Shown here: positions 6,782 to 60,750 of the stretch, in pieces
Position numbering within the stretch: the first letter of the stretch is position 1
Layout of the letters: each line of letters opens with the position of its first letter
NCBI GenBank assembly: GCA_946610035.1
Contig: CAMOCC010000002.1
Coordinates: forward strand, 4,254 to 68,253
Direction: 5' to 3'
Length of the DNA: 64,000 nucleotides
Origin: an uncultured Verrucomicrobiota bacterium
GTDB lineage: Bacteria > Verrucomicrobiota > Kiritimatiellia > RFP12 > UBA1067
Translations under genes and position numbers: made by a program
The notes under the pieces: generated by a model
The model's input: the letters and a program-made list of their open reading frames with translations, nothing else
Told to the model about the DNA's origin: nothing
Databases searched by the model: none

Positions 6782-9526
6782 ATGATAAACTTAGGAGGGG
6801 GAGTGCAAAGTTTCGTAGTGTTCGCATTGGCAGTAGTTGCCTTGGCGGCGACCGCAGGAGCGGCCGCCCTGATTTGTTTGGTTGTCAACTACCGCCGGAT
6901 GGCCGACGTGCGCCTGCGTTCGGGCGCCGTCGCGCCGACTGTGGGGGCGGGGCCGCGGGTCCCGGTCGACGAGTCGTGGCCGGACCTGCATCCCGACGAT
7001 TCCAAGGCGGTCGCCATGGCGAGGCGCAAGGCCCTCATTACGCGCTTCGTCGATATTTCGCCGTCGCCGTGCTACGTGAAGGACGCCTCCGACGGCTTCA
7101 GGTACATCGTATGCAACGATGCGTTCGCCAAGCTGACGGGGCTTGACAAGGACAGGATCGTCGGCTCGACAGACGAGGAGCTGTTCGGTCCGAAGTTCGC
7201 CATGGAGTCGCGCGCGAAGGACGAGGAGGCCCTTGAGTCCGACGCGCCGCTCTTCTACGAGGGCGCCATGCCGACAACGAGGGGCGGCGTCGGCTACAAG
7301 GTGAACCGTCGCAAGCAGAGGATCGTGACATGGGACGGCGTGAAGCTCATCTTCTGCCTCATGAGGGACGAGATGTACGACAGCCGCAGGGCCGATTCGG
7401 AGGCGTTCAAGGCGAAGCTCCTCGCGTACGCCATCGACCATCTCAACCACGAGGAGAACATCGAGTACATAGCGAGGCTGCTCGTCGAATACTTCGGCTG
7501 CGACAGGGTCGCGATTCGGTTCTCGGACGGTCCGCGCCACATCTGCTGGGCTGACGGGCGCAGGGAGGACGACGCCACCGACGGACGCAAGGCGGCGTGG
7601 GAGGCGTTCGGGACGGGCGACATCGTGAACGTCGAGGATGCGTCCAGGCTGAACCCCGAGTCGTGGCCGGAAGGCGCGGGGGCGATGGCGTTCCTCGGTG
7701 CGCGCGTGATGAAGGGGGGCGAAATGGTCGTCCAGGTCGCGGCCATTTTCGACAAGGAGCCCCACCACTTCTTCGAGGTGTCCGAGAGTGTCGTCATGTT
7801 CGCCGCCGAAACGCTCGCCCTGTCGCTCGAGCGCGCGCGGCTGCAGCGTCCGTACCAGATCGCCAACGCGAACTTCGAGACGATGTCCCGCGCGCTCCAC
7901 GAGCTCCAGGCGTCCGAGACGCTCGACGACCTAACGCCGTTCGTCAAGATCGTCTGCGAGCGTTTCAATGCGGACTACTGCTCCCTTGTGAAGGTGCTCG
8001 ACGACGGGCATAGCGCGGTCGTCTGCCAGTACGACCCGGACAGGGTGAGCGTCCTGCCCGACCTTCGGCGCGGCATTGCGGACGCGGCGGTGGGCGAGCT
8101 TGCGGACCGCTTCGGCGAGCACGACGCAATCGAGCTCGGCGACGAGGAGTCGCGCAGGTTGTGGCTCGACCACGGCTTCAACGAGGCGCAGATCGCGTCG
8201 GCTGCGATCCGCCACACCCAGCTCGCGGCCGTGCGCGTCAACGGCAAGTTCTGGGGCGCGATACAGATAGGCCACCACAGCCGCCGCCTCCTGAGCGACG
8301 ACGAATGGGGCCATCTCCACCGTCTTGCGGAGGTCCTTTCCATCGCCATCCGCCGGCGCGACGCCCACGACGAGCTCAAGGCGGCGCTCGACCGCGCAAG
8401 GGCGGCGGACAAGGCGAAGTTCTTCTTCTCGACGGTGAGCCACGACATCAGGACGCCGCTCAACGCCGTCATAGGGCTTTCGCAGATGCTGAAGCTGGGC
8501 TTCGCCACGGAGCAGGAGCGCGACAATGCGATAGACTCCATAATCTTGAGCGGCAAGACGCTCCTGCAGCTCGTGAACGACGTGCTGGACCTCTCGAAAC
8601 TCGAGGCGGGCAAGGTGGTCGTCAGCCCGGAGCCTACGGACTGCGCTAAGCTCATTTCGGAGATAGTGGGTTCCTTCAAGGTCGCGAACCCCGGCGCGGC
8701 GGTCGACATACGCAGCAGGATGTCGCCTATGCCGCTCCTGGAGATCGACCCGCAGCGCATCCGCCAGATCATCTTCAACCTCGCGGGGAACGCCGTAAAG
8801 TTCACCGTGAAGGGCTTTGTGGAGGTGAGGGCGTCCTTCGAGCCCGATTCGCCAGGCGCGGGAGCCGGGACGCTCACCGTCGCCGTGGAGGACACGGGCT
8901 GCGGCATATCGAACGAGGAGAGGAAGTTCATCGACACGCCGTACGTCCAGTTCGGGAAGGGCGTCAAGAAGGGCGGCACGGGGCTCGGCCTCGCAATCTG
9001 CCGCCAGCTCGCATCCGCCATGCACGGCCGGATAGAGTTCGAGAGCGAGGTGGGCAGGGGGACCGTCTTCTACCTGAAGATACCGGGTGTCAAGGCGTGT
9101 GCGGGCACCGTCCGGCCCGGGAGGAAGGACGCACAGCTCATGAGCCTGAGCGCCGTGGATGCTGCGCATTCGCGCTACACGAAGGTCCTCATAGCCGACG
9201 ACTCCAAGGTGAACCTGATGGTCCTTTCGTCGATGCTCAAGCGCCTGGGCGTAAGGGAGGTCGTCAAGGCGGAGAACGGCAAGGAGGCGCTGGAGAGGCT
9301 TCGCGAGGGCGGCTTCGACCTCGTGCTCACCGACATGTGGATGCCTGAGCTGGACGGCGAGGGGCTCGTCCGCGCCATGCGCGCCGACAGGCGGTTCGAC
9401 GGACTGCCGGTGTACGCAATCACGGCTGACGTGGAGATTCGGAACCACGTTGCACTGGACGGCTTCAACGGCATACTGTTGAAGCCAGTGACCTTCGACG
9501 TGCTCAAGCCGGTGCTGAATGCGTGA
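6782..9526 (+). CDS. hybrid sensor histidine kinase (TM, PAS, GAF-like, HisKA, HATPase_c, REC)
   Basis: H-box FFFSTVSHDIRTPLNAVIG, G-boxes EDTGCGIS and GGTGLGLAICRQL, receiver KVLIADDSKVN..DLVLTDMWMPELDG. GTG 6803 is a likely alternative start, 4 nt after an AGGAGG. Confidence 0.88.
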   Translation: MINLGGGVQSFVVFALAVVALAATAGAAALICLVVNYRRMADVRLRSGAVAPTVGAGPRVPVDESWPDLHPDDSKAVAMARRKALITRFVDISPSPCYVKDASDGFRYIVCNDAFAKLTGLDKDRIVGSTDEELFGPKFAMESRAKDEEALESDAPLFYEGAMPTTRGGVGYKVNRRKQRIVTWDGVKLIFCLMRDEMYDSRRADSEAFKAKLLAYAIDHLNHEENIEYIARLLVEYFGCDRVAIRFSDGPRHICWADGRREDDATDGRKAAWEAFGTGDIVNVEDASRLNPESWPEGAGAMAFLGARVMKGGEMVVQVAAIFDKEPHHFFEVSESVVMFAAETLALSLERARLQRPYQIANANFETMSRALHELQASETLDDLTPFVKIVCERFNADYCSLVKVLDDGHSAVVCQYDPDRVSVLPDLRRGIADAAVGELADRFGEHDAIELGDEESRRLWLDHGFNEAQIASAAIRHTQLAAVRVNGKFWGAIQIGHHSRRLLSDDEWGHLHRLAEVLSIAIRRRDAHDELKAALDRARAADKAKFFFSTVSHDIRTPLNAVIGLSQMLKLGFATEQERDNAIDSIILSGKTLLQLVNDVLDLSKLEAGKVVVSPEPTDCAKLISEIVGSFKVANPGAAVDIRSRMSPMPLLEIDPQRIRQIIFNLAGNAVKFTVKGFVEVRASFEPDSPGAGAGTLTVAVEDTGCGISNEERKFIDTPYVQFGKGVKKGGTGLGLAICRQLASAMHGRIEFESEVGRGTVFYLKIPGVKACAGTVRPGRKDAQLMSLSAVDAAHSRYTKVLIADDSKVNLMVLSSMLKRLGVREVVKAENGKEALERLREGGFDLVLTDMWMPELDGEGLVRAMRADRRFDGLPVYAITADVEIRNHVALDGFNGILLKPVTFDVLKPVLNA

Positions 9527-10716
9527 CTAAGGGAGAAGACGGGACAGTGAAGGGGATTTCGATATATCTGTTCATCGACGCGCTCGGATGGGACGTGGTG
9601 GAGCCTACCGGGTTCCTCTCGGACGTCCTGCCGAACAGGCGCGCGGTGGACATGCAGTTCGGATACTCCTCGTCTGCGATCCCGACGATCCTCTCCGGCA
9701 GGCAGCCCGACGAGCACGGGCACCTCGGCCTCTTCGCATGGGCCCCCGAGAGGAGTCCGTTCCGCCGCGTCGCCCGCATCATGCGCCTCATGCGTCCGCG
9801 CGCCGTCTTCAACCGCCCGCGAGTCCGCGGGTGGATCTCGAAGGCCGTCAAGCGCGCCCTCGGGATAACGGGCTACTTCCAGCTCTACCAGATGACGCCG
9901 GAGAAGCTCCCCTACGTCGACTACTGCGAGAAGAGGGACCTCTTCGTCCCCGGCGGCATGGAGGGCGTCGCGAACATCGCGGACGAACTCGTGCGCGCGG
10001 GCGTCCCCCACCACATCAGCGACTGGCGGCGCCCGGACGAGGAGAACCTCGCTATAGGCGCGAAGGAGATCGGGATGGGGACTGACTTCGTCTTCATCTA
10101 CACCGCCGAACTGGACGCCCTGCGGCACAAGTTCGCCGCGCCTTCCGTCAACCCCGAGGTGAAGGCGAAGCTCGCATGGTACCGACAGCGCATCCTCCGC
10201 CTCGTCGCGGCCGCGAAGTCCACCGGACGCCCCTGGACGCTCACCGTCTTCTCCGACCACGGGATGACGCCGCTCACCAAGACCGTGGACCTGAAGGGCG
10301 CGGTGGAGGCGACGGGGCTCGTCCTCGGGCGCGACTACGGCGCGTGCTACGACTCGACGCTTTTCAGGGTTACGTACCTCAAGCCAGGCGCGAGGGAGCG
10401 CATCGAGGCGGCTCTCGCGCCATTCGCCGGGGACGGACGCTGGCTCACGGAGGGCGACGAGCGGGAGAACGGGGTGTGGCGCAGGGACAGGGCGTTCGGC
10501 GACGCCATCTTCCTTGTGAAGCCGGGCGTGCAGATCGTCCCCAGCGACATGGGGCTCGCCCCGCTCGCGGGGATGCACGGGTTCGATCCGCGCGACGTCC
10601 ACTCGAAGGCGGCCGTGATGTCCACGGCGCCGATCCCGGACTGGGTGCGCGGGGTGAAGGACTATTTCAGATTGATGAAGGCGGGCTTCGAAGTCGGAGG
10701 CCCCGGGAACAACTAA
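9523..10716 (+). CDS. alkaline-phosphatase-superfamily protein (type I phosphodiesterase / nucleotide pyrophosphatase-like), no signal peptide seen
   Basis: IDALGWD, GYSSSAIPTILSGRQPDEHG and VFSDHGMTP motifs. GTGA overlap with the kinase stop codon. Confidence 0.65.
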   Translation: MTKGEDGTVKGISIYLFIDALGWDVVEPTGFLSDVLPNRRAVDMQFGYSSSAIPTILSGRQPDEHGHLGLFAWAPERSPFRRVARIMRLMRPRAVFNRPRVRGWISKAVKRALGITGYFQLYQMTPEKLPYVDYCEKRDLFVPGGMEGVANIADELVRAGVPHHISDWRRPDEENLAIGAKEIGMGTDFVFIYTAELDALRHKFAAPSVNPEVKAKLAWYRQRILRLVAAAKSTGRPWTLTVFSDHGMTPLTKTVDLKGAVEATGLVLGRDYGACYDSTLFRVTYLKPGARERIEAALAPFAGDGRWLTEGDERENGVWRRDRAFGDAIFLVKPGVQIVPSDMGLAPLAGMHGFDPRDVHSKAAVMSTAPIPDWVRGVKDYFRLMKAGFEVGGPGNN

Positions 10717-10734
10717 CAAGCAATAAGGAGGCTT

Positions 10735-11070
10735 ATGGAGATAAAGATAGAGAGCAAGGAAGGGCTCATAATAGTGGCCGTCGACGGGCGTCTCGTGGCG
10801 TCGTGCTCCGAGGAGCTCAAGGAGAGGGTGTCGGCGGAGATGGAGAAGACGCCGAACGTCGTCTTCGACTTCACGAACATGACGCACGTGGACTCGTCGG
10901 GGCTGGGTGCGCTCGTGTACATACTGCAGCGCGCCAAGGCGGCCGGCGGAACCGTCCGCCTCGCATGCCTCCAGCCGCACCCGCGCATCGTGTTCGACAT
11001 AACAAAGGTGTTCCGCGTCTTCGAGATATACGACACCGTCGAGGCTGCGGAGAAGGCGTTCAACAAGTAG
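10735..11070 (+). CDS. STAS-domain protein (anti-sigma-factor antagonist, SpoIIAA/HsbA-like)
   Basis: 111 aa. Contains the phosphorylatable-serine motif THVDSSGLGALV. SD aaggagg upstream. Confidence 0.85.
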   Translation: MEIKIESKEGLIIVAVDGRLVASCSEELKERVSAEMEKTPNVVFDFTNMTHVDSSGLGALVYILQRAKAAGGTVRLACLQPHPRIVFDITKVFRVFEIYDTVEAAEKAFNK

Positions 11071-11074
11071 ACTG

Positions 11075-14000
11075 GTGAAAATTGCGCACATAGTCAGACG
11101 CTACGCCAGGAACGAATGGGGCGGAACGGAGACGGTCGTCTCCCACATAGCGACGGAGCAGCTCCGCCGCGGGGACGACGTGCGCATTTTCTTCACATCG
11201 GCCTGCCAGCCGCCCGGCTCGACGGAGGGGTATGCGTACTACTACCCGTACTGGCCCATGCCGGAGTCCGACCGCATAGCGCTGGACAAGAAGGGGGGCA
11301 GCCCCATCTCGCCGGCGCTCATGAGGGCCGTGGAGGACTTCAAGCCCGACCTCATCCACATACACGCGGGCGGGCGGCTCGCCTGCGCGGCGGCGGGGCT
11401 TGCGGAGGAGCTGTGCGTCCCGTCCGTCATGTCGCTGCACGGCGGCGCGATGGCGGTACCGGAGTCGGAAATGGAGGAGATGCTCCGTCCGATGAAGCGC
11501 AAGATACCCTACGGCGGCATCATCGACCGGCTAATGGGGCTCAATTTCGATCCTCTCGAGCAGGTCGACGCGATAATCTGCATCTCCTACGCCGAGAAGC
11601 GGAAGCTCGCCGAGAAGTATGGCGCGGGCCGGGTGCACTACCTGCCCAACGGCGTGGAACCGCCCGCCGAGGTGATCGGGCGCGGCAACGCCCGGAGCCG
11701 CGCGTCCCTTGCGGACCCCAGGGCCGTGAAGAACATCCTCTGCGTCTCGCGGATAGACTACCAGAAGAACCAGCTTGCGCTGGTGGAGCTCCTTGCCGGA
11801 CTTCCGAGCGCAAGGCTCACGCTTGTCGGACCCGTGACGGCGAAGTGGTACGGCGACAAGATACTCGCCCGCGTCCGCGAACTCGCCCTGGAGGACAGGT
11901 TCACGATGATCCCCGGCCTCCCGCCGGGAAGCGCGGAGCTGGAGGCGGAGTACGCCAAGGCGGACGTCTTCGTCCTGCCGAGCATACACGAGCCTTTCGG
12001 CATCGTCGCGCTGGAGGCGATGCAGCGAGGCATACCCCTCGTCGCGTCCGCCGTCGGCGGACTCGTCGACTTCGTGCACGACGGCAAGAACGGGCTCCTC
12101 TTCGACCCCGCCGCGCCGGACAGCCTCAAGTACGCCTTCTCGCGCTTCGTCATGGACGAGGCGCTGGCCGCGCGGATAGCGGAGGGGGGGCGCAGGACGG
12201 CGTCCGGTTTCATGTGGCCGGCGATCGTCGACAGGCTGGAGGGGATATACAGGGAGACGGTGCTCGGAGTCAAGACCGAAGGCTTTGTGAAGCGCGTCAC
12301 TGGCGGACGGGACGTGTCCATCCTCGTGAGGTCCCGCAACGAGGCGCGATACCTTGAGAGGACGCTTGCGGGCATCGAGGCCCAGCACTCCACGCGCATA
12401 CTGGAGGTGATAGTCTGCGACGACGCGTCGACGGACGATTCGCTGTACGTCGTCGAGGCGGCGAAGACGCGGGCGGCGAGGTCCGGCAGGTACATGATAC
12501 GCACCATTCCGCCTCCCGACGGCGAGTACCGTCCGGGGCGGATGCTCAACGCTATGGTGAAGGCGGCGTCCGGGCGTGTGATAGTCTTCAACAATGCGGA
12601 CGCCGTGCCGCTCGACTGCGACTGGCTCGAGAACCTGATTGCGCCGCTCGACTGCGGGCGGGCGGACGTCGTGTTCGCGAACCAGCTGCCTCGCCCCGAC
12701 GCCGACGTGCTGGTGAAGAAGGACTCCGTCAGGGCATTCGGGAACGGGCTCGTCTCCGCCGACTGGCCGCACTTCTTCTCGCTTGCGTCGTCGGCCGCGA
12801 TGAAGTACGACCTTCAGAAGTACCCCTTCGACGAAACGCTCATATACTCCGAGGACGTCGAATGGGCGAACAGGCGCAAGGGCTTCAGGCGCGTCTACTC
12901 GCCGCTTTCGCGCGTCGAGCACTCCCACGACTACACGAACGACCAGCTGGTCCGCCGCTTCTACGGAGAGGGGTATGCGGACGCGCAGATATTCGGCGAC
13001 CGGCCGGCGCCCTTTGCGAAGACGTTCCTTCGCGTGCTGGCGGAGTCCCTGCGCGACGCCAGGTATGTAATGGACGGTTCGGCGTCCGTCGGCTTCTGGA
13101 AGGGCCTGTGTACGATGCTTTCGTCCCCGAGGCGGCGCTGGCTGCAGAGGATGAGCCACGAGCGCGGAGTCGCCGATTTCCGCGAGGGGCGTCCGCCGCG
13201 CTACGTCTCCACCTCCGTCCGCCAGCGGCAGGCCGCCTGCGGCAAGACGCCGACCGTCCTGTTCACGGGGGTGTATCCGAAGTACCACGGCGGACTGGAG
13301 CGGTTCGCCGCGAGAATGGCGGACCTCCTGCGCTCGCGCGGGTACAAGGTCGACGTGATGGGCGATCCGCCGGAGGACGCGTCCGGCTACTCATACGTGC
13401 TCATGCACAAGGTCCCGCCGTCGCCCGCGGCGCTCAGGCGGCTGAAGTCGCAGTGCGGCGGACGGCTTCACTTCTTCGCGCACGACCACGAGCTCTACTG
13501 CCTGAGGCGGCACGGGTACACGCCGTTCAGGTGCAACTGCACGAGGGCGTATTCGCCGGCAAGATGCAGGCTCTGCGCGATGGTGACGCGTCCGCGATGG
13601 ATCTGGCGGGCGCTGACGCGTCCGATGCGCGCGTTCTTCGCCGAGATGAAGGGCGTGAGGATTTTCGCGCCGTCGGCCTTCACGCGGGACGCGCTTCTCA
13701 GAAACGGCTTCAATGCCGACGACATATCCATCGTCGCTCCCTTCTTCCATGAGGGGGAGATAGGGTCGAGTAGGGTCGATTTAGGGTCGACGCTAAAAGA
13801 CCCTAAACTGACGCTAAAAGACCCTAAAAAGACCCTAAAAGACCCTAACTCGACCCTAAAAGGCCCTAAACCGCTAAACCTCCTCTTCATGGGCCAGCTC
13901 ATCGCCGGGAAGGGGGTTGACATCCTCCTCGACGCCGTGAACCTACTCGACATCCCCTTCAGGCTGACCGTGGTCGGCTCCGGGCGCGACGAGGCGAAGC

Positions 14001-14422
14001 TGCGCGCCAAGGCGGCTTCCTTCGCGTCCGAAAAGCGCGATTCGATAGTCTTCACCGGTTGGTGCGAGAATCCGGAGGCGTACTTTGCCGAGGCGGACGC
14101 CGTGGTCTTCCCGTCAAGGTGGAACGAGCCGTACGGCCTCACCGGCGTGGAGGGCTACTGCCGCGGTGTGCCGTGCGTCGGCTTCGCGACGGGCGGAGTG
14201 CCCGGGTGGCTGATCGACGGCGAGACGGGCGTTCTCGTCGGGGAGAAGACGCCCGAGGCGCTGGCGGCCGGGATCGTCCGCATTGCGGACCCCGCATACA
14301 GGTTGCGCCTTGCGAAGGGCGCCCTGCGGTTCGCACATGAGAACTTCGCCCCCGACGTCATTCTGCGGCGAATGGGCTTTCAGTCGTGTTCCGCATGCGA
14401 AGGGAAGGGGGCGCCGTCATGA
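11075..14422 (+). CDS. three-module glycosyltransferase (GT4-like, GT2-like, GT4-like), 1115 aa
   Basis: N-terminal MKIAHIVRRY..GGTE and ..EPFGIVALEAMQRGIPLVAS (GT4). Middle VSILVRSRNEARYLERTLAGIEAQ..VCDDASTDDS (GT2). C-terminal ..EPYGLTGVEGYCRGVPCVGF (GT4). Confidence 0.8.
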   Translation: MKIAHIVRRYARNEWGGTETVVSHIATEQLRRGDDVRIFFTSACQPPGSTEGYAYYYPYWPMPESDRIALDKKGGSPISPALMRAVEDFKPDLIHIHAGGRLACAAAGLAEELCVPSVMSLHGGAMAVPESEMEEMLRPMKRKIPYGGIIDRLMGLNFDPLEQVDAIICISYAEKRKLAEKYGAGRVHYLPNGVEPPAEVIGRGNARSRASLADPRAVKNILCVSRIDYQKNQLALVELLAGLPSARLTLVGPVTAKWYGDKILARVRELALEDRFTMIPGLPPGSAELEAEYAKADVFVLPSIHEPFGIVALEAMQRGIPLVASAVGGLVDFVHDGKNGLLFDPAAPDSLKYAFSRFVMDEALAARIAEGGRRTASGFMWPAIVDRLEGIYRETVLGVKTEGFVKRVTGGRDVSILVRSRNEARYLERTLAGIEAQHSTRILEVIVCDDASTDDSLYVVEAAKTRAARSGRYMIRTIPPPDGEYRPGRMLNAMVKAASGRVIVFNNADAVPLDCDWLENLIAPLDCGRADVVFANQLPRPDADVLVKKDSVRAFGNGLVSADWPHFFSLASSAAMKYDLQKYPFDETLIYSEDVEWANRRKGFRRVYSPLSRVEHSHDYTNDQLVRRFYGEGYADAQIFGDRPAPFAKTFLRVLAESLRDARYVMDGSASVGFWKGLCTMLSSPRRRWLQRMSHERGVADFREGRPPRYVSTSVRQRQAACGKTPTVLFTGVYPKYHGGLERFAARMADLLRSRGYKVDVMGDPPEDASGYSYVLMHKVPPSPAALRRLKSQCGGRLHFFAHDHELYCLRRHGYTPFRCNCTRAYSPARCRLCAMVTRPRWIWRALTRPMRAFFAEMKGVRIFAPSAFTRDALLRNGFNADDISIVAPFFHEGEIGSSRVDLGSTLKDPKLTLKDPKKTLKDPNSTLKGPKPLNLLFMGQLIAGKGVDILLDAVNLLDIPFRLTVVGSGRDEAKLRAKAASFASEKRDSIVFTGWCENPEAYFAEADAVVFPSRWNEPYGLTGVEGYCRGVPCVGFATGGVPGWLIDGETGVLVGEKTPEALAAGIVRIADPAYRLRLAKGALRFAHENFAPDVILRRMGFQSCSACEGKGAPS
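13761..13868. repeat. in-frame inverted/direct repeat cluster (3x TAGGGTC, then 5x GACCCTA plus 1x GGCCCTA) inside the glycosyltransferase gene
   Basis: tagggtcgag (13761-70) is the exact reverse complement of ctcgacccta (13849-58). The 19-nt unit gacgctaaaagaccctaaa occurs at 13789-13807 and 13810-13828. The region encodes TLKDPK-type peptide repeats. Confidence 0.9.
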
Positions 14423-16266
14423 AACTGCTGGTCGACGTCATACCCTTCGACAACGGGAAGTCCGGGATATCGGTGTACTGCCGCGAGGTGGTTGCCGCCC
14501 TGGTGGCGGACGGACACGAGGTGACTCTGCTGGCGGAGCCTGGCGTGGCCGGGGAGTTCTTCCCCGGGCTTGCCCACATCGACGCGCCCAGGTGGACGAA
14601 GAGGCCTGCGTTGTCCATGCTCTGGCACCTTCTTCGCGCGCCTGCGCTCGTCAAGCGGTCGGGGTGCGCTGCGTGCCTGCTTCTCGCTGCGAACAGGCGG
14701 GCGTTCCGCAGGTATCCCGTCCCCACCGTCGCTGTCGTCCACGATCTCGCACAGTACCATGTCGATGCGAAGTACGACAAGTTCAGGATGTTCTACATAA
14801 AGCGGCTGCTTCCGCACTTTGTCCGCAAGGCCCACACCGTCGTCGCGATATCGAAGAGCACGGCGAAGGACCTCGTGGAGCACTGGCGCATACCGGAGTC
14901 GATCGTGAGGGTCGTCTACAACGGATTCACGAAGTCCGGCGGTGTCCCCGGCGTCGGGACGGGCGGGACGGAGGGCGGATCGATCCTCTACATCTCGCGT
15001 ATCGAGCATCCGGGGAAGAACCACGAGACGCTGATAGAGGCGTACGGTAGGCTGCCGCGCGAATTCGCCGAGCGGCATCCGCTCGTCCTCGTCGGCGGCG
15101 ATTGGAACGGTGCGGAGAAAATTCACGAACTCGCCGGGAGCAGTCCGTATCGCGACTTCATCCGCTTCACGGGGTTCGTGCCCGCCGGGGACCTCCGGCG
15201 GCTGTACGCGGAGGCGTCGTGCTACGTCTTCCCGAGCAGGTTCGAGGGATTCGGGCTTTCCCTTCTCGAGGCGATGGACGCGGGAGTGCCGTGTGCGTGC
15301 TCGAAGACCGGATCGCTTGGCGAGATCGGAGAAGGCGCGGCGGAGCTGTTCGATCCCGAGGATCCGGACGACATTGCGCGGGCCGTGAAGGCGGCGGCGG
15401 AAGGTCCCGGAAGGGATTCCTTGATTGCGGCGGGCAGGGCCAGGGCGGAGTGCTTCGACTGGCGGAAGTGCGCGCGCGGACTGCTCGGATCGTTCCCCAA
15501 GGCGGAGGTCTTCGGCGTGCCGGTGGACTGCGTGACGATGGAGGAGGCGGTCGGCGAAGTCGCCGGCTGCGTCCGCACCGGCGCGAAGCCGAAGTTCTTT
15601 GCGTTCGTCAACGCCCACTGCCTCAACACGGCCTACCGGGACGCGGAGTACGCCGAGATACTGAAGAGTTGCGATGCGGTGTGGCCGGATGGAAGCGGCG
15701 TGCGCATCGCCGGGCGCATCCTGGGCTTCCCCGTGCCGGCGAACGTGAATGGGACGGACCTTTTCCCGATGCTGTGCCGCGCGGTCGAAGGGGACGGACC
15801 CGGGTCGCGTTCCGTCTTCATGTTCGGCGGCGAGCCGGGCGTGGCCGAGAAGGCGGCGGAGAATGCCGTCCGGATGTTCCCCGCTCTGAGGATCGCCGGA
15901 GTGTGCGACGGGTTCCGCCCGCCAGGGGAGGCGGAGTCGGCCATCGCCGCCGCGCATCCCGACATACTGCTCGTGGCGCTCGGTGTTCCGCTTCAGGAGA
16001 AGTGGATAGCGGCGCGGCTGGGGAGTCTCGACTGCGGATGCGTCCTTGCGGTGGGCGGGCTTCTCGATTTCGTGTCCGGCCGCCATGCGAGGGCACCGAT
16101 GTGGATGCGCAGGCACGGGATCGAGTGGATGCACCGTTTCATGCTGGAGCCGCGGCGGATGTTCCGCCGGTACATAATAGGCAATCCGCTTTTCATGGCG
16201 CGGGTCGCGCGCGAGCGGCGTGCGAGGCGCGGGGATTTCAAGAGAGGAAGGTGTATGCGGCAATGA
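14419..16266 (+). CDS. fusion glycosyltransferase: GT4-like N-terminal module plus WecG/TagA/CpsF (GT26)-like C-terminal module
   Basis: I place the start at ATG 14419 (ATGA overlap). GT4 motif: RFEGFGLSLLEAMDAGVPC. GT26 motifs: FVNAHCLN, WPDGSGV, ILLVALGVPLQEKW, GGLLDFVSG. Confidence 0.78.
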   Translation: MKLLVDVIPFDNGKSGISVYCREVVAALVADGHEVTLLAEPGVAGEFFPGLAHIDAPRWTKRPALSMLWHLLRAPALVKRSGCAACLLLAANRRAFRRYPVPTVAVVHDLAQYHVDAKYDKFRMFYIKRLLPHFVRKAHTVVAISKSTAKDLVEHWRIPESIVRVVYNGFTKSGGVPGVGTGGTEGGSILYISRIEHPGKNHETLIEAYGRLPREFAERHPLVLVGGDWNGAEKIHELAGSSPYRDFIRFTGFVPAGDLRRLYAEASCYVFPSRFEGFGLSLLEAMDAGVPCACSKTGSLGEIGEGAAELFDPEDPDDIARAVKAAAEGPGRDSLIAAGRARAECFDWRKCARGLLGSFPKAEVFGVPVDCVTMEEAVGEVAGCVRTGAKPKFFAFVNAHCLNTAYRDAEYAEILKSCDAVWPDGSGVRIAGRILGFPVPANVNGTDLFPMLCRAVEGDGPGSRSVFMFGGEPGVAEKAAENAVRMFPALRIAGVCDGFRPPGEAESAIAAAHPDILLVALGVPLQEKWIAARLGSLDCGCVLAVGGLLDFVSGRHARAPMWMRRHGIEWMHRFMLEPRRMFRRYIIGNPLFMARVARERRARRGDFKRGRCMRQ

Positions 16267-18233
16267 GCATAATAAGGCTGATAGTGGAGGACTTGAACCG
16301 CAGGAGGCGCCACGGCGGGATTCTCCTCGTCGTGACGGTGGCGGTGGTTTGGATTGTCGCGGTCGGGTTCATGCTGGACAGCTACAGGAGGCTTTGGAGG
16401 CTGACGGACGAAGTGGGGGCGAGCCACAGGTACTGGCAGGACCTCTCGGAGGTCGGAATCGAGTTCAGGGAAGGGTCCGACAGGCTCACGCTCGAGGTGA
16501 CGCGGTACGTCCTCTTCGAGGACATCAGGTACATGCGCGCCTACTTCCACGAAGCCGACGTGACGCGCAGCCGCGAGCACGCGCTGGAGGCGCTGAAGGA
16601 CGTGCCCGGGTCGGAGCCGCTCGCCGAGGCGCTCGACAGGGGAATGGACGAATCCGTCCGCCTGATGGAGACCGAGTTCCACGCAATGCGGCTGACGGCG
16701 GCGGCGAGCGGGGTGGACGAAGCGGCGCTCCCGGAGAAGCTCCGCAACTGGAAGCTGACCGACGAGGAGAGGGCGATGGACGCCGACGCAAAGCGCAAGC
16801 TCGCCGGGCGGCTCATCTTCGGCAAGGAGTACAACGACGTCAAGGAGCGGATCTGGCGGGCGGCGTCGGAGCCGTTGAAGGAGCTGCTCTCGAGGGTCCA
16901 TGTGAGGTACGACAAGTTCACGGGCGACATCGTCTTGTGCCGCCGCCTCAACATGACGTACACGATCATCTGCATAGTGATGCTGCTCCTGAGCTTCTAC
17001 GGCGCGATGAGGGTCGGGCTTCTGCGGTTCAAGTCGAAGGAGAGGCAGATGCTCGCCGCCGTGATGCGCGAGCGCGACGCGGCGGTTGCGGCCGAGAAGG
17101 CGAAGGACTACTTCTTCGCGTCGGTCTCGCACGACATCCGCTCGCCGCTCAACTCCATCATCGGCTTCTCCGAGCTGCTCAGGCGCGGGGACGCGACCGG
17201 GAGCGAGCGCGAGATGTACCTGGAGGGCATAGAGACGTCAGGCAAGCAGCTCCTGGAACTCATAAACGACGTCCTCGACCTGGGCAAGATCGGTGCGGGC
17301 AAGATCGTCCTCAAGCCGGAGCCGGTGGACGTCCTGCGCCTCGTCTCGGAGGTCGTGAACGTCTTCCTCCCGCAGGCCCAGCACGCGGGGTTGACGATAT
17401 CCTCCTTGCACACGTCCGAGCGGCACTTCCCGTACCTCGACAGGATGCGCTTCCGCCAGGTGCTGATGAACCTCGTGGGCAACGCGGTCAAGTATACGGA
17501 GAAGGGGGGCGTCGACGTGACGGTCGAATGCGACGAGAAGACTGGAAGCCTCGTCATCGCCGTGCACGACACCGGGCGCGGCATTTCGCCCGAGGACAAG
17601 GAGAAGCTCATGCAGCCCTACGTCCAGCTCTCGCACGCCGACGGACGCAAGGGCACGGGGCTCGGGCTCGCCATCTGCCGCCAACTCGTCGAACTTATGG
17701 GCGGGCGCATAACCATCGAAAGCGAGCTGGGCGTGGGGAGCGTGTTCACCGTCCGGCTGGAACGCGTGCGCTTCGCGGACGGCGAGGACCTCGCGAGGCT
17801 TCGCGCCGAGGCGGCGTCGTACTCGGAGAGGACGGAGCGCCAGATCGACGCCCACGACCCGGCCATCGCGAAGCTGCGCCTCCTGGTGGCGGACGACATG
17901 CCGCTCAACATAACGGTGCTGAGGCAGATGCTCAAGCGCTACGGGATAACGAAGGTCGTCGCGGCGTCCAACGGACGCGCGGCGCTGAACGAGCTGAGGG
18001 GCGACGGCGCGGCGTTCGACCTCGTGTTGACGGACATGTGGATGCCCGAGATGGGCGGCGAGGAGTTCATCCGCATAGTGCGCGCAGACCCTGAGCTGAA
18101 GGACATCCCCGTCTACGCCGTCACGGCGGACGTCGAGATCCTCAAGAACTACCAGGATCTGGGATTCACCGGGACGCTGCTGAAGCCGGTGACGTTCGAG
18201 GCCCTGGCAAAGATACTTTCGTCGGTAATATAG
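16263..18233 (+). CDS. hybrid sensor histidine kinase (2 TM sensor, HisKA, HATPase_c, REC)
   Basis: I place the start at ATG 16263 (ATGA overlap); the upstream part of track ORF 15102 is an overlapping frame. H-box FFASVSHDIRSPLNSIIG, HDTGRGIS, GTGLGLAICRQL, receiver LLVADDMPLN..DLVLTDMWMPEMGG. Confidence 0.85.
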   Translation: MSIIRLIVEDLNRRRRHGGILLVVTVAVVWIVAVGFMLDSYRRLWRLTDEVGASHRYWQDLSEVGIEFREGSDRLTLEVTRYVLFEDIRYMRAYFHEADVTRSREHALEALKDVPGSEPLAEALDRGMDESVRLMETEFHAMRLTAAASGVDEAALPEKLRNWKLTDEERAMDADAKRKLAGRLIFGKEYNDVKERIWRAASEPLKELLSRVHVRYDKFTGDIVLCRRLNMTYTIICIVMLLLSFYGAMRVGLLRFKSKERQMLAAVMRERDAAVAAEKAKDYFFASVSHDIRSPLNSIIGFSELLRRGDATGSEREMYLEGIETSGKQLLELINDVLDLGKIGAGKIVLKPEPVDVLRLVSEVVNVFLPQAQHAGLTISSLHTSERHFPYLDRMRFRQVLMNLVGNAVKYTEKGGVDVTVECDEKTGSLVIAVHDTGRGISPEDKEKLMQPYVQLSHADGRKGTGLGLAICRQLVELMGGRITIESELGVGSVFTVRLERVRFADGEDLARLRAEAASYSERTERQIDAHDPAIAKLRLLVADDMPLNITVLRQMLKRYGITKVVAASNGRAALNELRGDGAAFDLVLTDMWMPEMGGEEFIRIVRADPELKDIPVYAVTADVEILKNYQDLGFTGTLLKPVTFEALAKILSSVI

Positions 18234-18245
18234 CCTTTAGGACGG

Positions 18246-18274
18246 TTCACACCGCGCCCTTGTTATGGTATAAT
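18246..18274 (+). promoter_or_regulatory. promoter TTCACA-N17-TATAAT with TGG extension
   Basis: TTCACA at 18246-51 and TGGTATAAT at 18266-74, in the only sizeable intergenic gap (18234-18333) of the supercluster. Confidence 0.5.
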
Positions 18275-18333
18275 ATCCGTGATGCGCGGTTTTGCACCGA
18301 TACCGAAGCGGCTGAAGCGGAGAGGAGATGTAG

Positions 18334-20013
18334 ATGGCCGAAGACGACAACGGGAAGATGCAGGTTCTCATGCTGGACGACGAGCGGCTCGTCCGGTTCA
18401 CCATTGGCACGTATCTGAAGGCATCCGGCTTCAACGTGCACGAGGCGTCGACGCCCGACGAGGCGATCGGCATACTCCGTCGCACCCAGATCCACGTAGT
18501 CGTGTCCGACGTCAGCATGGGCGACGTGGACGGCTTCATGTTCAGGGACATGGTCCGTTCCTTCAACGCCGACATCCCCATCGTCTTCCTGACGGCGATG
18601 GTGAACGACGAGAACAACGCCTTCATGTCGAAGCTGACCGACGACATACGCTCCTACTACGTCTCCAAGTCGGCCCCGCGCCATGTGCTGGTCACGAGAA
18701 TCCAGCAGGTCTCGGAGTTCTACCGCGCGAGGATCGGGCTCGAGCGCTCGCGCGACGCCCTGCAGAAGAGCCTCAGGCTTGCGAGCTGCGTCCAGAAGTC
18801 GATGCTCCCGTACTGGGCGAGCGTAAGCCGCCAATACGCCTACTCATGCCGCATCCGCGCATTCGAGTCAGTCTCCGGCGACCTCATGGAGTGGTACCGC
18901 CCGACGGAGACGACGGCCCTCGTCATCTTCGGCGACGTCTCCGGCCACGGGACGAACGCGGCGCTCGCGATGACGGCGATCCAGGCGTTCCTCAAGCAGT
19001 TCAAGCACATCGAAGTCTCCATCGCGAGGCGCGTCCACCACATCGCCTCGCTCATACACGAGTTCATATCCGCGAACTTGAGGGATGTCGCGTACATGGC
19101 CGCCACGATCGTATACGTCGACTTCGAGGCGTGCCGTTGCCGCTACCTCAACTGCGGCAACCCCGAGCCCTACATCTCGCACCTTGGGGACGGGGCGCGG
19201 CGGATCGTCAACAAGGAGGCGAGGGGCGGACTGCCGCTCGGGCTCATGCCGGACGCCGAGTACCACGATTCCGACGTCGTGGAGTTCGACTTCCATCCGG
19301 GCGACGCCTACGTCCAGATGTCCGACGGCATATACGACGTATCCAGCGACCCCGGCGGCGAGAGCCGCATCCCCGACGACATCGTCGACGAACTCGTCGC
19401 CATCACTATACGCGACCAGCCGTCGAAGGGCGAGTTCCTGTGCGAGCTGCCATACCGTCTCTTCGGCGCGATCTACGACATGGGCTTCACGCACCAGCAG
19501 GACGACATGTCGGTCTGCGTCTTCTCGCCGTTTGCGAAGACGGACGGGCGGACGTACTTGCACCGCGTGAGGATGCAGCCCGGGAAGATCGACACCGTGA
19601 GCCACTCCGCCGGCGTATGGGTGGCGGACAGGTTCAAGTCCGACGAACTGGGGGTGAAGGCGGAGCTTCTCCTGAACGAGCACCTCATGAACATCTACCG
19701 CCACGGCTACGACGCCTTCGAGAAGCAGCGCGAGGTGTGCATAATCGCGATCCGCGAGGACCTTGGGACGATGCAGGTCAGCGTCTGGGACAGGGGCGCG
19801 CCGTGGTCGCAGATCGCGTCCTCGTCGTACTCCGCCGCCGAGGCGAAGCTCGACGAGCAGAACGAGGCGCTTGCCGCGAACGGACGCGGGCAGGCGATAA
19901 TGAAGAAGCTCACGCAGAGCATCAGCCGCGTGAGGACCGCGGGGTTGAACAGGACGGTGTTCACGTTCGCCCTGCCCGAGGAGTATTTGAAATCCAGTGG
20001 CGACAAATCGTAA
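18334..20013 (+). CDS. response regulator with PP2C-type (SpoIIE/RsbU) phosphatase and C-terminal RsbW/SpoIIAB-like kinase (HATPase_c_2) domains; HsbR-like
   Basis: REC: VLMLDDERLV..VVVSDVSMGDVDG. PP2C: SGDLMEWY..FGDVSGHGTNAAL..MSDGIYD. Kinase-like: NEHLMNIYRHG, VWDRGAPW, NGRGQAIM. Confidence 0.82.
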   Translation: MAEDDNGKMQVLMLDDERLVRFTIGTYLKASGFNVHEASTPDEAIGILRRTQIHVVVSDVSMGDVDGFMFRDMVRSFNADIPIVFLTAMVNDENNAFMSKLTDDIRSYYVSKSAPRHVLVTRIQQVSEFYRARIGLERSRDALQKSLRLASCVQKSMLPYWASVSRQYAYSCRIRAFESVSGDLMEWYRPTETTALVIFGDVSGHGTNAALAMTAIQAFLKQFKHIEVSIARRVHHIASLIHEFISANLRDVAYMAATIVYVDFEACRCRYLNCGNPEPYISHLGDGARRIVNKEARGGLPLGLMPDAEYHDSDVVEFDFHPGDAYVQMSDGIYDVSSDPGGESRIPDDIVDELVAITIRDQPSKGEFLCELPYRLFGAIYDMGFTHQQDDMSVCVFSPFAKTDGRTYLHRVRMQPGKIDTVSHSAGVWVADRFKSDELGVKAELLLNEHLMNIYRHGYDAFEKQREVCIIAIREDLGTMQVSVWDRGAPWSQIASSSYSAAEAKLDEQNEALAANGRGQAIMKKLTQSISRVRTAGLNRTVFTFALPEEYLKSSGDKS

Positions 20014-20028
20014 ATCAAGGGGGGATAA

Positions 20029-20343
20029 ATGAAGGAATGCATAAAGGAATGGCTGCTGAAGCAGATGCCGGAAATGGACGACGACACGCTCGGCGCGATA
20101 TACGAGGAGTACCGCGACAGCGCCGTGAGGCTGTGGGGCGACCTGAAGGCGAATGTTTCGTCCGGGGGCGATCCGGTCGCGGCGGATCGTCTGGCGCACA
20201 CCCTGAAGGGCAGCGCGGCGACCGTGGGCGACAACGCCGTCTTCGAGGTCGTCCAGGGCTGGCGCGAGGCCGTGAAGGCCGGCGACACCGCCCGAGCGGG
20301 CGAGCTGTGGGTGAAGATCGAACCGCTCATCGAGGCGATTTGA
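20029..20343 (+). CDS. histidine phosphotransfer (Hpt) protein
   Basis: 104 aa with the motif AHTLKGSAATVG. Confidence 0.8.
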   Translation: MKECIKEWLLKQMPEMDDDTLGAIYEEYRDSAVRLWGDLKANVSSGGDPVAADRLAHTLKGSAATVGDNAVFEVVQGWREAVKAGDTARAGELWVKIEPLIEAI

Positions 20344-20380
20344 TCCTGCGTGGAGCGAAGAAGGAGTTTAATTCGACGGT

Positions 20381-21121
20381 TTGAACAAGAGAGCCAGAGA
20401 GGGGTCGGCCGCGGTGGCCGGTGCGGATCTGACGGACCTCGTCCGCCAGCTTGAGCGCCGTACGCGTCTCAGCCGAAGCAGCAGATTCCGCCTGGCGATG
20501 TGGAACGCCACGGTCCGCGGCGCGTATTTCGTGAAGCGGGCGTTCGACGTGTTCGTGTCCGGCGGCCTCATGCTCCTCCTCTCCCCGGTCTTCCTGGCGA
20601 CGTACCTCGCCATAAGGCTGACCTCTCCAGGCCCTGCGTTCTTCTCGCAGACGCGCGTCGGGCGCTACGGGCGCCACTTCAAGTTCTGGAAGTTCAGGTC
20701 CATGAGGATCGACGCGGAGTCGATGAAGAAGTCGCTCATGTCCGAGAACGAGTCCGGCGACGGAGTCATATTCAAGATGAAGAAGGATCCGAGGATAACG
20801 CCGGTCGGGCGCTTCATCCGCAAGTTCTCCATCGACGAGCTGCCGCAGCTGTGGAACGTCCTCAAGGGCGACATGACGCTCGTCGGGCCTCGTCCGCCCG
20901 TCCCGTCCGAGGTCGCCGAGTACACGCTCGAGGACCGCAAGCGGCTCAACGTCATACCGGGGCTGACGTGCACCTGGCAGGTTTCGGGCAGGAGCGAGAT
21001 ACCGTTCCGCGAGCAGGTCAGGCTCGACAAGGAGTACATCCGGACGCACGGATTCTGGAACGACCTCAAGATCCTGGCCAAGACGGTTCCGGCGATCCTC
21101 ACAGGAAGGGGGGCCTACTGA
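20381..21121 (+). CDS. small phosphoglycosyl transferase (bacterial sugar transferase, PglC/WbaP C-terminal type)
   Basis: KRAFDVFVSG..., FKFWKFRSM, KMKKDPRITPVGRFIRKFSIDELPQLWNVLKGDMTLVGPRP. Start uncertain: TTG 20381, GTG 20414 or ATG 20498. Confidence 0.85.
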   Translation: MNKRAREGSAAVAGADLTDLVRQLERRTRLSRSSRFRLAMWNATVRGAYFVKRAFDVFVSGGLMLLLSPVFLATYLAIRLTSPGPAFFSQTRVGRYGRHFKFWKFRSMRIDAESMKKSLMSENESGDGVIFKMKKDPRITPVGRFIRKFSIDELPQLWNVLKGDMTLVGPRPPVPSEVAEYTLEDRKRLNVIPGLTCTWQVSGRSEIPFREQVRLDKEYIRTHGFWNDLKILAKTVPAILTGRGAY

Positions 21122-59597: not shown

Positions 59598-59676
59598 GAT
59601 CGTCGCTCAGGGGGTTGCGTCGCTGTAGGGGGTTGCGTCGCCGTAGGGGGTTGCGTCGCTCCGCGACGGAACCCCC
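59598..59676. repeat. about 3.5 tandem copies of an 18-nt unit GGGGGTTGCGTCGCYGTA; the last copy forms a hairpin
   Basis: Full copies at 59610-27, 59628-45 and 59646-63. GGGGGTTGCGTCGC (59646-59) pairs with GCGACGGAACCCCC (59663-76) with one mismatch. Begins 16 nt after the GH95 stop. Confidence 0.85.
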
Positions 59677-59732
59677 TGCGGCCCCCATTCCCCGTTCCAT
59701 CGAACTTGTCATGGAAAGTTCCGGCAAAATAA

Positions 59733-59741: not shown

Positions 59742-59768
59742 ATGCTGTGTTGGAAAGGAAAGCATCAC

Positions 59769-60737
59769 ATGGACAGATATGAAACGATGCCGTATGTGCG
59801 GTGCGGACGAAGCGGACTCAGGCTTTCGCGCGTCGCGTTCGGGCTCTGGCACAACTTCGGGACGTACGACGACCGCGCGAACATGGCGCGTCTCGTCACG
59901 CGCGCGTTCGACCTGGGCATAACCCACTTCGACCTCGCGAACAACTACGGTCCGGAGCCTGGCTCGGCGGAGGAGAACTTCGGGCGGCTCCTCGACTCGG
60001 AACTGAAGGGACACCGCGACGAGCTGATCGTCACGACGAAGGCGGGACATCTCATGTGGCCGGGTCCGTACGGCGACTGGGGTTCGCGCAAGTCGCTGAT
60101 CGCGAGTCTCGACCAGAGCCTCAGGCGCATGAAGCTCGACTATGTCGACATCTTCTATTCCCACCGCCCCGATCCGGAGACGCCGCTGGAAGAGACGATG
60201 GGCGCGCTTTCGGACATCGTGCGCTCGGGCAAGGCGCTCTACGTCGGAATTTCGAAGTATTCTGCCGCGCAGACGCGCGAAGCGGCGGCGATCCTGAAGC
60301 GCAACGGCACGCCGCTGCTCATACACCAGTTCCGCTACAACATGTTCACGCGCGGCATCGAGAAGGACGGACTTCTCGACGCGCTGGAAGAGACCGGTGC
60401 CGGCGGCATCTGCTTCTCGCCCCTCGCGCAGGGGCTTCTGTCGTCGCGTTACCTTGACGGAGTTCCCGCCGACAGCAGGGCGGCGAAGAACGCCTTTCTG
60501 AAGACCGACACCATTACGCCTGAAATGCGCGCGAAGCTTGCAAGACTGAACGATTTCGCCGTGTCACGCGGCCTGACGCTCGCTGAACTCGCTCTCAAGT
60601 GGGTGCTCCGCGACCGGCGCGTAACTTCCGTGCTGATGGGCGCGAGCCGCGTCAGCCAGCTTGAGGAAAACCTCGGTTTCCTGCAGAAACCGGACCTCGG
60701 TTCATCCGATCTGGAGGGAATCGAAGGTTTGCTGTGA
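59769..60737 (+). CDS. aldo/keto reductase (YghZ/Gpr-like)
   Basis: MPYVRCGRSGLRLSRVAFGLWHNFG, HFDLANNYGP, DIFYSHRPD, and the rest of the AKR fold. Confidence 0.85.
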   Translation: MDRYETMPYVRCGRSGLRLSRVAFGLWHNFGTYDDRANMARLVTRAFDLGITHFDLANNYGPEPGSAEENFGRLLDSELKGHRDELIVTTKAGHLMWPGPYGDWGSRKSLIASLDQSLRRMKLDYVDIFYSHRPDPETPLEETMGALSDIVRSGKALYVGISKYSAAQTREAAAILKRNGTPLLIHQFRYNMFTRGIEKDGLLDALEETGAGGICFSPLAQGLLSSRYLDGVPADSRAAKNAFLKTDTITPEMRAKLARLNDFAVSRGLTLAELALKWVLRDRRVTSVLMGASRVSQLEENLGFLQKPDLGSSDLEGIEGLL

Positions 60738-60750
60738 AGGGCTTTAAGGT

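Follow-up and report, generated by a model that had tools for sequence, protein, structure and literature searches.

A palindromic TAGGGTC repeat array carried in frame by a glycosyltransferase gene of a Kiritimatiellia bacterium, and its relatives in other genes and genomes

Introduction

Contig CAMOCC010000002.1 of an uncultured Verrucomicrobiota bacterium (GenBank assembly GCA_946610035.1; Kiritimatiellia, RFP12, UBA1067) was analysed over 64,000 nucleotides (nt; positions 4,254 to 68,253 of the forward strand), a stretch referred to below as the window. It contains a gene for a three-module glycosyltransferase (GT) whose third module carries, in frame, a short array of TAGGGTC units followed by a run of their reverse complements. 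This array differs in length between closely related strains, is missing from the nearest homologues of its host and has relatives inside many unrelated genes, and it is on balance probably a copy of a dispersed element that acts at the level of DNA and is tolerated by the enzyme.

Selfish palindromic DNA lying in frame at unstructured positions of proteins is documented for the Rickettsia palindromic elements (RPEs) and for intragenic copies of repetitive extragenic palindromic (REP) sequences (PMC10969869, PMC3733652, PMC2996958). The array described here is compared with these and other repeat families after its anatomy, distribution and variation have been set out.

The Host Gene and the Anatomy of the Array

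The features of the locus, in window coordinates and with their basis in brackets, are the following:

11075-14422, plus strand: host gene, encoding a 1115-aa three-module glycosyltransferase GT4-GT2-GT4 (open reading frame (ORF), translation, Pfam)
13235-14419, plus strand: third module, GT4 with GT-B fold, the repeat lying between its N-lobe and C-lobe (AlphaFold2)
13761-13868, plus strand: the tract, a palindromic array of 11 units arranged head-to-head (sequence)
13761-13788, plus strand: left arm, three TAGGGTC units at 13761, 13771 and 13782, spaced 10 and 11 nt, read as IGS-SRV-DLGS (sequence)
13782-13795, plus strand: palindrome centre and switch of orientation, TAGGGTC/GACGCTA, containing GTCGAC (inverted repeat)
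13789-13868, plus strand: right arm, eight inverted units (sequence, Tandem Repeats Finder)
13870-13876, plus strand: ACCGCTA, perhaps a terminal unit in decay, 8 nt past the preceding unit and out of phase (judged from sequence)
13747-13759, plus strand: flank CCATGAGGGGGAG, which pairs with 13880-13892 and lengthens the predicted hairpin (inverted repeat, 13 nt, 85%)
13880-13892, plus strand: flank CTCCTCTTCATGG, native coding sequence for LLFMG in the first C-lobe strand (conserved in repeat-free homologues)

Pfam assigns residues 15-374 of the host protein to Glyco_transf_4/Glycos_transf_1, 415-550 to Glycos_transf_2 and 935-1070 to Glyco_trans_1_4, the last being the C-lobe domain of module 3, which begins immediately past the tract. 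An AlphaFold2 model of this module, built from a 62-sequence alignment, has a GT-B fold with a mean predicted local distance difference test score (pLDDT) of 87 and a predicted template modelling score (pTM) of 0.85. Its sole internal stretch of low confidence (pLDDT <50), residues 179-208, is the repeat; the strand that ends the N-lobe region (164-166) lies before it and the strand that opens the C-lobe (214-219) after it. For the window's protein, the one modelled, the insert is predicted to be a disordered surface loop compatible with the fold.

The left-arm run, in which TAGGGTCGA is present at 13761, 13771 and 13782, meets the reverse-complement run with no spacer. The latter comprises GACGCTA at 13789 and 13810, GACCCTA at 13799, 13820, 13831, 13841 and 13852, and GGCCCTA at 13862. 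Start-to-start spacing alternates between 10 and 11 nt, so that the true period is 21 nt or seven codons; Tandem Repeats Finder returns a period of 21 with 4.0 copies (score 115), and the 21-nt super-unit of the right arm translates as TLKDPKx. The peptide of the entire tract, in the frame of the host ORF, is EIGSSRVDLGSTLKDPKLTLKDPKKTLKDPNSTLKGPKP. Both the 19-nt direct duplication (13789-13807 and 13810-13828) and the 10-nt inverted repeat formed by TAGGGTCGAG and CTCGACCCTA (13761-70 and 13849-58) are exact, the two arms are 79-82% complementary across 28-32 nt, and the GC content of the tract is 0.48 vs ~0.67 in its surroundings. All six copies of GACCCTAA in the window fall inside the tract (expected 0.52; 0 of 100 shuffles reach six), and a two-unit pattern gives four matches against none expected.

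As a single strand, the region 13745-13895 is predicted to fold into one long hairpin, both as RNA (-66.8 kcal/mol, z = -8.1) and as DNA (z = -5.8). A first-pass annotation, made from the letters alone, had described the tract as a REP-like or MITE-like hairpin block (a MITE being a miniature transposable element with inverted repeats) of unusual composition, in frame in the inter-lobe linker of the third GT module, with three TAGGGTC, five GACCCTA and one GGCCCTA units, an outer inverted repeat and a direct duplication, and had proposed a prediction of its RNA folding. These points agree with the present analysis; the tally of units was right for those listed but left out the two GACGCTA units, and the 21-nt (10+11) super-unit went unrecognised.

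At the upstream flank, the GAGGGGG within 13747-13759, which is in phase 10 nt before the first unit, may be a decayed unit. The flanking inverted repeat (13747-59 and 13880-92) was also considered as a terminus of the element and set aside, since its downstream half is native coding sequence for LLFMG and no conserved ends are seen at other copies; it is treated as a coincidence or a decayed unit. A minus-strand ORF of 215 aa (13495-14142) crosses the repeat and is probably not a gene. Such an opposite-strand frame is expected because the array is palindromic and stop-free and the GC content is high.

Absence of the Array from Homologues

The sister protein cluster (P0002, P0013, P0017) is 54% identical to the host protein and has the same three-module architecture and the same neighbouring genes. 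Its linker is unrelated and non-repetitive (~20 aa, TDAVRARDDFMPVAPDGTRP) and is encoded by ordinary GC-rich DNA, in which no repeat units were found. A search with module 3 alone returned 188 homologues, the 82 best of which (40-58% identity) were examined at the linker. The repeat is absent from all 82, and the linker slice measures 42-51 residues in them vs 71 in the window. By these alignments the insert is lineage-specific, a secondary acquisition, which the first-pass annotation had proposed to check, and ~10 residues that the linker had ancestrally were apparently lost or overwritten.

An exception is a distant GT4 (P0145, 38% identity) in which the same DNA, with 4 + 8 units, occupies the corresponding linker position, and a further locus (L189) is a comparable case. 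Because the intermediate homologues have no insert, the array of P0145 would seem to have arisen independently, at a site that is permissive.

Four GT2-GT4 homologues (P0116, P0117, P0126, P0139) contain in the same inter-lobe linker an unrelated insertion of 16-22 aa (LTRRLRVGHGTE...), which confirms that the loop tolerates extra residues. The idea that this insertion is a decayed copy of the array was rejected, as the DNA of P0116 has no repeat units. P0116 derives from a Hadza gut metagenome (L264, 4470-4640), and its gene adjoins MTaX1, RadC and SLFN/AlbA_2 genes.

As regards the organism, the closest GT4 homologue with a label (P0123) belongs to Kiritimatiellae. The tRNA-Arg/Met/Pro cluster of the window is nearly identical to that of the genome RUG14632, parts of the spacers included, and the KpsF genes of RUG14632 and of the Kiritimatiellae bacterium RGIG2266, a metagenome-assembled genome (MAG), are nearly identical. 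These similarities point, with moderate confidence, to a Kiritimatiellota bacterium as the source of the window.

Length Differences Between Strains

The allele of the window was compared with the DNA of six more, recovered from different samples and by different assemblers, all of them short-read assemblies; the source samples look like wastewater or digester metagenomes. In the protein cluster formed at 90% identity the members have 1091, 1101, 1112, 1115 and 1120 aa, and the differences in the repeat region come as blocks of 7 aa. Outside the tract, over ~3.2 kb, the seven alleles (which come from no fewer than six assemblies) share 97.1-99.1% identity, and the only other indel there is one of 30 nt at the 3' end that produces an alternative C-terminus. 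Inside the tract of 120 nt, at least four indel events (21, 21, 63 and 6 nt) separate them. The left arm has 3 or 5 units (5 corresponding to +21 nt) and the right arm 2, 6, 7 or 8, giving tract lengths of 78, 120, 135 and 141 nt, of which that of 120 nt occurs in two compositions.

All these indels are multiples of 3, mostly of 21, and no frameshifted allele was seen, 8 of 8 full-length alleles being in frame. The first-pass suggestion of a slippage-prone tract is therefore upheld as to the length of the linker, which does differ between strains, but not as to its frame. Two entries from different assemblers (L001 and L002) are identical in sequence and have the same 194-nt version. The minimum free energy predicted for the hairpin is -45 to -51 kcal/mol in the three alleles with 5 left and 2 right units and -67 to -93 kcal/mol in the others. 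Inversion between the arms was considered for the alleles of equal length (3+8 vs 5+6 units) and dropped, since 21-nt deletions from a 5+8 ancestor suffice.

At the 3' end of the gene (window 14380-14422 compared with L001, L003 and L007) there are two classes of C-terminus, ...MGFQSCSACEGKGAPS and ...GRMEVMQK, which differ by the 30-nt indel. They do not track the length of the repeat, which suggests recombination between strains.

A Dispersed Family in Other Genes and Genomes

Three phased TAGGGTC units, with exact cores required, were sought in 185,579 species genomes and found at no fewer than 90 loci in very diverse phyla. This raw count means little because phased decamer arrays of arbitrary 7-mers are also common: in viral contigs, TAGGGTC gave 29 arrays, and two shuffled versions of the 7-mer, spaced in the same way, gave 2 and 13. 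In view of these controls the notion of a universal TAGGGTC motif was dropped and only the head-to-head, in-frame, GC-rich subset was retained. In this subset a TAGGGTC run is followed by a GACCCTA run inside long ORFs, in the same two stop-free frames, and the hosts are MAGs labelled Kiritimatiellae/Kiritimatiellia or Verrucomicrobia, RUG14632 and one MAG labelled Lachnospiraceae. Metagenome contigs scanned for the junction pattern, again with exact cores, gave at least 120 loci; among the matches listed were 26 more in-frame arrays on contigs of GC 0.58-0.67, many from the rumen.

Altogether at least ~18 distinct in-frame host sites were counted, two GT4 sites and several unnamed hosts included, mostly in housekeeping genes, in related genomes and metagenomes (rumen or wastewater) and not in the window's own genome. 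Related copies elsewhere, which the first-pass annotation had envisaged, thus do occur, in frame in many other genes. Pfam domains of enzymes flank the array on both sides in an FGGY sugar kinase, a KpsF-type SIS+CBS protein and a ManC-type nucleotidyltransferase, and in MutL the array occupies the inter-domain linker. The other hosts with Pfam domains on both sides are an Asp/Glu racemase (MurI), a DegT aminotransferase, TatD, a ProA-like aldehyde dehydrogenase, MnmE/TrmE, threonine synthase, a pyrimidine nucleoside phosphorylase, UppS, QueA and a radical-SAM methylthiotransferase. Some copies split single domains (NTP_transferase, racemase, TrmE_N). Orthologous arrays occupy the same site in MurI, KpsF, ManC and DegT across species whose flanks are 70-90% identical. 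L227 and L253 proved to be opposite-strand readings of a single locus, which is counted once, and they illustrate how the palindromic, stop-free design allows the coding strand of an array-bearing ORF to be mis-called.

The same kinds of contigs also contain long intergenic arrays of up to ~25 units, which sometimes supply the TAG stop of the adjacent ORF (L011, L014). In these two rumen MAGs, one labelled Kiritimatiellae and the other RUG12612, a gene of 255-264 aa has long TAGGGTC/GACCCTA arrays on both sides (L011, 3920-5546; L014, 5867-7279), with up to ~25 units at a period of 10; its stop is the TAG of the first unit and it adjoins AAA-ATPase genes. As a candidate mobilising protein its product was rejected, the matches being limited to a weak, sub-threshold one to 23S_rRNA_IVP (a four-helix bundle), with none to a transposase.

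Searches of other kinds did not extend the family. A word-indexed search with the repeat peptide found no other hosts, and exhaustive phmmer found only unrelated low-complexity heptad repeats, mostly in eukaryote-like proteins. Plasmid and phage collections gave no match, the low-complexity filter of BLAST being able to hide some, and Rfam at gathering thresholds, applied to the window and ten array-bearing loci, returned tRNAs only and no family for the array. Within 16 nt outside the first and last units of 18 sites neither a conserved end nor a direct (target-site) duplication was found; a weak G-rich bias precedes the first unit across these sites.

Two further sets of loci came up in the scans. 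Several unrelated genomes, among them Flavihumibacter petaseus (L018, L030, L053, L074, L087) and the Spirochaetes MAG OH_HBB_164 (L046, L066, L071, L080), each have multiple intergenic, one-directional TAGGGTC arrays with genome-specific 11-nt units (TAGGGTCAGCT/ACCT; TAGGGTCAATC/ACTC ending GGTGGTC), and two of the F. petaseus loci share ~120 nt of downstream sequence; these arrays may or may not be related to the element of the Planctomycetes-Verrucomicrobia-Chlamydiae (PVC) bacteria. The junction pattern also caught a conserved 51-nt element, TAGGGTCGTTGACGACCCTATAGCGACCCTATGACGACCCTTGTTAGGGTC, in AT-rich intergenic DNA (L144, 1405-1455; L157, L160, L188 and ~25 further metagenome loci). 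Its flanks are nearly identical and it is found on many low-GC contigs; it is unrelated to the in-frame family and is evidently one locus of an abundant organism.

Codon Usage and Unit Spacing

The codons of the tract are foreign to its host. Against a background of 2388 host codons, AAA accounts for 7 of its 8 Lys codons (2% in the background), CTA or TTA for 5 of 6 Leu codons (1.9% and 0.5%) and CCT for 4 of 5 Pro codons (7%). The peptides LGS/xRV of the left arm and TL/DP of the right arm are simply what TAGGGTC and GACCCTA encode when read without a stop. Within the core TAG does not vary, and the base before it is G in some units (GTAGGGTC at 13770; TGGTAGGGTC in L011) and T or A in others.

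Adjacent spacings inside ORFs are 10+11 or 11+10 in 190 of 203 cases, whereas in intergenic arrays of the same kind of contigs they are 10+10 in 120 of 145. Coding copies keep the 21-nt period because a plain 10-nt period would cross the frame of the TAG. The native element is a decamer array, of which the coding copies are a constrained subset or derivative. Since reverse-complementing the array gives the array again, either strand can be the coding one: the frame stays open and the resulting peptide is of the same kind.

Comparison with Known Repeat Families

The RPEs, as related from Ogata et al. (2000, 2002) in PMC10969869 and PMC2996958, resemble the array in being dispersed, hairpin-forming and selfish-looking DNA that lies in frame in many unrelated functional housekeeping genes as well as between genes, and that adds a hydrophilic peptide at surface or unstructured positions. 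By the same accounts an RPE has a fixed length of ~100-150 bp and a unique sequence, whereas the element described here is a variable 10/11-nt array in two opposed runs, strongly length-polymorphic (78-141 nt at the GT site). The RPE hosts are AT-rich obligate intracellular alphaproteobacteria, in contrast to a free-living or gut PVC bacterium of ~67% GC. Architecture and length set the array apart from RPE-1 to RPE-10, and a relation in sequence is not expected.

GTAG REPs and the bacterial interspersed mosaic elements (BIMEs) that they form, which are linked to REP-associated tyrosine transposases (RAYTs), are likewise short palindromic repeats; they are reported in the PVC superphylum, often occur as head-to-head or tandem clusters with a minority inside genes, and their TAG often supplies the stop of a neighbouring ORF (PMC3733652), as it does in L011 and L014. 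The core of the present array starts with (G/A/T)TAGGG, but GTAG is found in only some units. A REP unit is a stem-loop of 20-40 bp, whereas the unit here is 10-11 nt long and not self-complementary, only the whole array being palindromic. MITEs are small, dispersed inverted-repeat DNAs without coding capacity that occasionally form in-frame fusions (PMC10969869); at the 18 sites the array has neither their defined terminal inverted repeats of 15-30 bp nor a target-site duplication or a fixed length.

Palindromic amphipathic repeat coding elements (PARCELs) are tandem coding repeats of variable number with dyad-symmetric DNA and a patchy distribution. Their units are of 75 nt (25 aa), amphipathic, of the DUF285/TIGR02167 type, and make up whole ORFs, often of membrane proteins, in contrast to the 7-aa unit and short arrays found here within known enzymes; a Pfam scan of the host protein found glycosyltransferase families only and no match of the DUF285 type. 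The array shares with intragenic variable number tandem repeats (VNTRs) and contingency loci a tandem copy number that differs between 97-99% identical strains, but none of its eight full-length alleles is out of frame. The VNTR of the Helicobacter pylori fucosyltransferases FutA and FutB is similar in having a 21-nt (7-aa) unit in a glycosyltransferase and a strain-variable copy number. That repeat is direct and gene-specific and forms a dimerising stalk that affects the product, whereas the present array is palindromic, common to unrelated genes and predicted to be disordered.

The array is not a member of the RPE, REP/BIME, MITE or PARCEL families. It can be placed in the class of protein-coding selfish palindromic repeats on account of its hairpin, its in-frame copies in unrelated genes, its absence from homologues and its unstructured position. 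A literature search on the motif and on repeats of Kiritimatiellota or Verrucomicrobia found no specific description, and the TAGGGTC family, which is probably one of Kiritimatiellota, is apparently undescribed.

Interpretation

The explanation favoured here, with somewhat more confidence than doubt, is that the tract is a copy of a dispersed, selfish palindromic tandem-repeat element that acts at the level of DNA, is tolerated in a permissive loop and changes by slippage of 21 nt. The element would consist of units of ~10 nt with the core TAGGGTC, a run of which is followed by a run of reverse complements. Between genes it would keep a plain 10-nt period, while inside genes only versions alternating between 10 and 11 nt would survive, as the period of 21 nt (7 codons) keeps the frame and avoids the TAG of the unit. 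The window copy may have landed, or grown, in the surface linker that joins the two Rossmann lobes of the GT4 module, where ~39 extra disordered residues would be tolerated; the repeat would then be retained because it does no harm, the peptide itself not being needed. Its length would shift through replication slippage (slipped-strand mispairing) or through deletions, promoted by the hairpin, of 21-nt double units in either arm; linker-length alleles would thereby be left among near-identical strains, selection on the enzyme purging variants that are out of frame. We infer both the selfish or neutral nature of the element and slippage as the mechanism of length change. The domesticated Lys/Pro linker proposed in the first-pass annotation found no positive support and is disfavoured because of the extreme non-host codon usage and the presence of the same DNA in unrelated cytoplasmic enzymes and between genes.

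Several observations weigh against this explanation. The tract is the only copy of the array in the window, where no further copies were found. Neither a transposase nor a target-site duplication or conserved terminal repeat was found, so that mobility is read from the distribution of the copies. The 10+11 spacing of the copies in ORFs is in part a logical necessity of their being open. Short-read assemblies can mis-size repeats, yet a read is longer than the tract and the results of two assemblers coincide. Lastly, in MurI, KpsF and ManC the cores of orthologous arrays stay near consensus despite diverged flanks. Such persistence hints at continuing homogenisation or a function at the DNA level, since a neutral relic should decay, although the conservation of the cores is inflated by ascertainment, retrieval having demanded exact TAGGGTC units.

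A bolder proposal, which we hold only tentatively, is that the TAGGGTC arrays are an undescribed and still active system of Kiritimatiellota, in which a conserved trans-acting protein (a recombinase or transposase, or an array-binding protein) would recognise the 7-nt core and would seed and homogenise head-to-head arrays, entry into coding sequence being afforded by the 10+11 spacing that is open in both orientations.

The persistence of the cores also bears on a rather unlikely alternative, in which the arrays are functional DNA sites: cores phased with the helix (10-11 bp), and hence all turned to one side of it, would form a cooperative platform for a conserved protein that recognises TAGGGTC, and coding copies would persist through selection on the motif. 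Such a protein might serve nucleoid organisation, segregation or regulation, or might be a recombinase of the element itself. The strictly kept spacing of 10-11 nt is in accord with such sites, as are cores at consensus even in synonymous third positions (GGG, GTC, CTA) between flanks of 70-90% identity, and arrays that adjoin genes in intergenic DNA and sometimes give their TAG stop. No candidate binding protein was found, however; copy number and the balance of the arms vary even between strains, the positions are scattered over unrelated genes, the search patterns inflate the conservation of the cores, and shuffled 7-mers also yielded arrays in the viral contigs.

Less likely again is an adaptive variable linker, a contingency locus or 'molecular ruler' in which gain and loss of 7 residues would tune the distance or flexibility between the lobes and so alter the activity or product of a surface-polysaccharide enzyme. 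The polysaccharide cluster of the host includes more GTs and a sugar transferase, its 21-nt (7-aa) unit varies in copy number among strains of 97-99% identity, a second, distant GT4 has the array at the same linker, and the variable 21-nt heptad repeats of H. pylori FutA/FutB are reported to act in this way. Antigenic or product variation would be senseless, though, in the cytoplasmic MurI, MnmE, QueA, threonine synthase and MutL, which carry the same element, as does intergenic DNA. Moreover, the codons of the tract are among the rarest of the host, the peptide is modelled as disordered, and ~80 homologues work with a fixed short linker.

Still more improbable is a translational pause, by which the mRNA hairpin and a run of rare codons (AAA, CTA, TTA and CCT) would slow the ribosome between lobes or modules and aid co-translational folding, or would tune the stability of the mRNA. 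The strongly negative folding energy and z-score given above and the location of some copies at domain borders (the GT linker, the inter-domain linker of MutL) fit this proposal. Translating ribosomes unwind such stems, however, and much of the pairing is missing from the alleles with 5 left and 2 right units, in genes that are otherwise near-identical; homologues have no such element, and other copies split single domains. An artefact of assembly (a chimera, or collapse or expansion of the repeat) is very improbable: repeats are error-prone in short-read metagenome assemblies, but the tract recurs at one site, without exception in frame, across six or more independent samples or assemblies, the 194-nt version was obtained identically with two assemblers, and dozens of unrelated contigs and isolate-independent MAGs have the same architecture.

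The Neighbourhood of the Gene and Other Repeats of the Window

The GT gene belongs to a conserved cluster (window 6782-20384; L001 1-23339). Besides GT4-GT2-GT4, its products are a hybrid histidine kinase/response regulator, a phosphodiesterase, a STAS-domain protein, a GT4-WecG fusion, a second histidine kinase-response regulator, a response regulator that combines SpoIIE phosphatase and HATPase_c_2 domains, an Hpt protein and a sugar transferase of the Bac_transf type. The make-up of the cluster suggests a polysaccharide pathway controlled by partner switching or a phosphorelay.

Elsewhere in the window, a gene resembling those of aldo/keto reductases (59742-60737) is bracketed by intergenic tandem repeats that are unrelated in sequence to the TAGGGTC array, with 3.4 copies of the 18-nt CGTCGCTGTAGGGGGTTG followed by CCCCATTCCCCGTTCC upstream (59601-59700) and ~12 heptads (G/A)TTCCCC downstream (60749-60831).

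Concluding Remarks

Rickettsia and a few other reduced genomes are the main places in which selfish palindromic DNA is known to have colonised functional genes in frame. What differs here is its setting in a GC-rich, free-living or gut-associated PVC lineage and the form of the element, two opposed runs of helix-phased decamers whose pairing into 21 nt renders them frame-neutral and readable on either strand. For annotation, the arrays are a warning that low-complexity stretches of the 'LGSDRV...TLKDPK' kind in these proteins are DNA elements and not domains. They also show, as a natural experiment, which loops of essential enzymes can accommodate 10-70 additional disordered residues, and they provide a fast-evolving marker for typing strains of rumen and wastewater Kiritimatiellota. 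If the core is actively maintained, its study might bring to light a DNA enzyme or binding protein that is sequence-specific and new.

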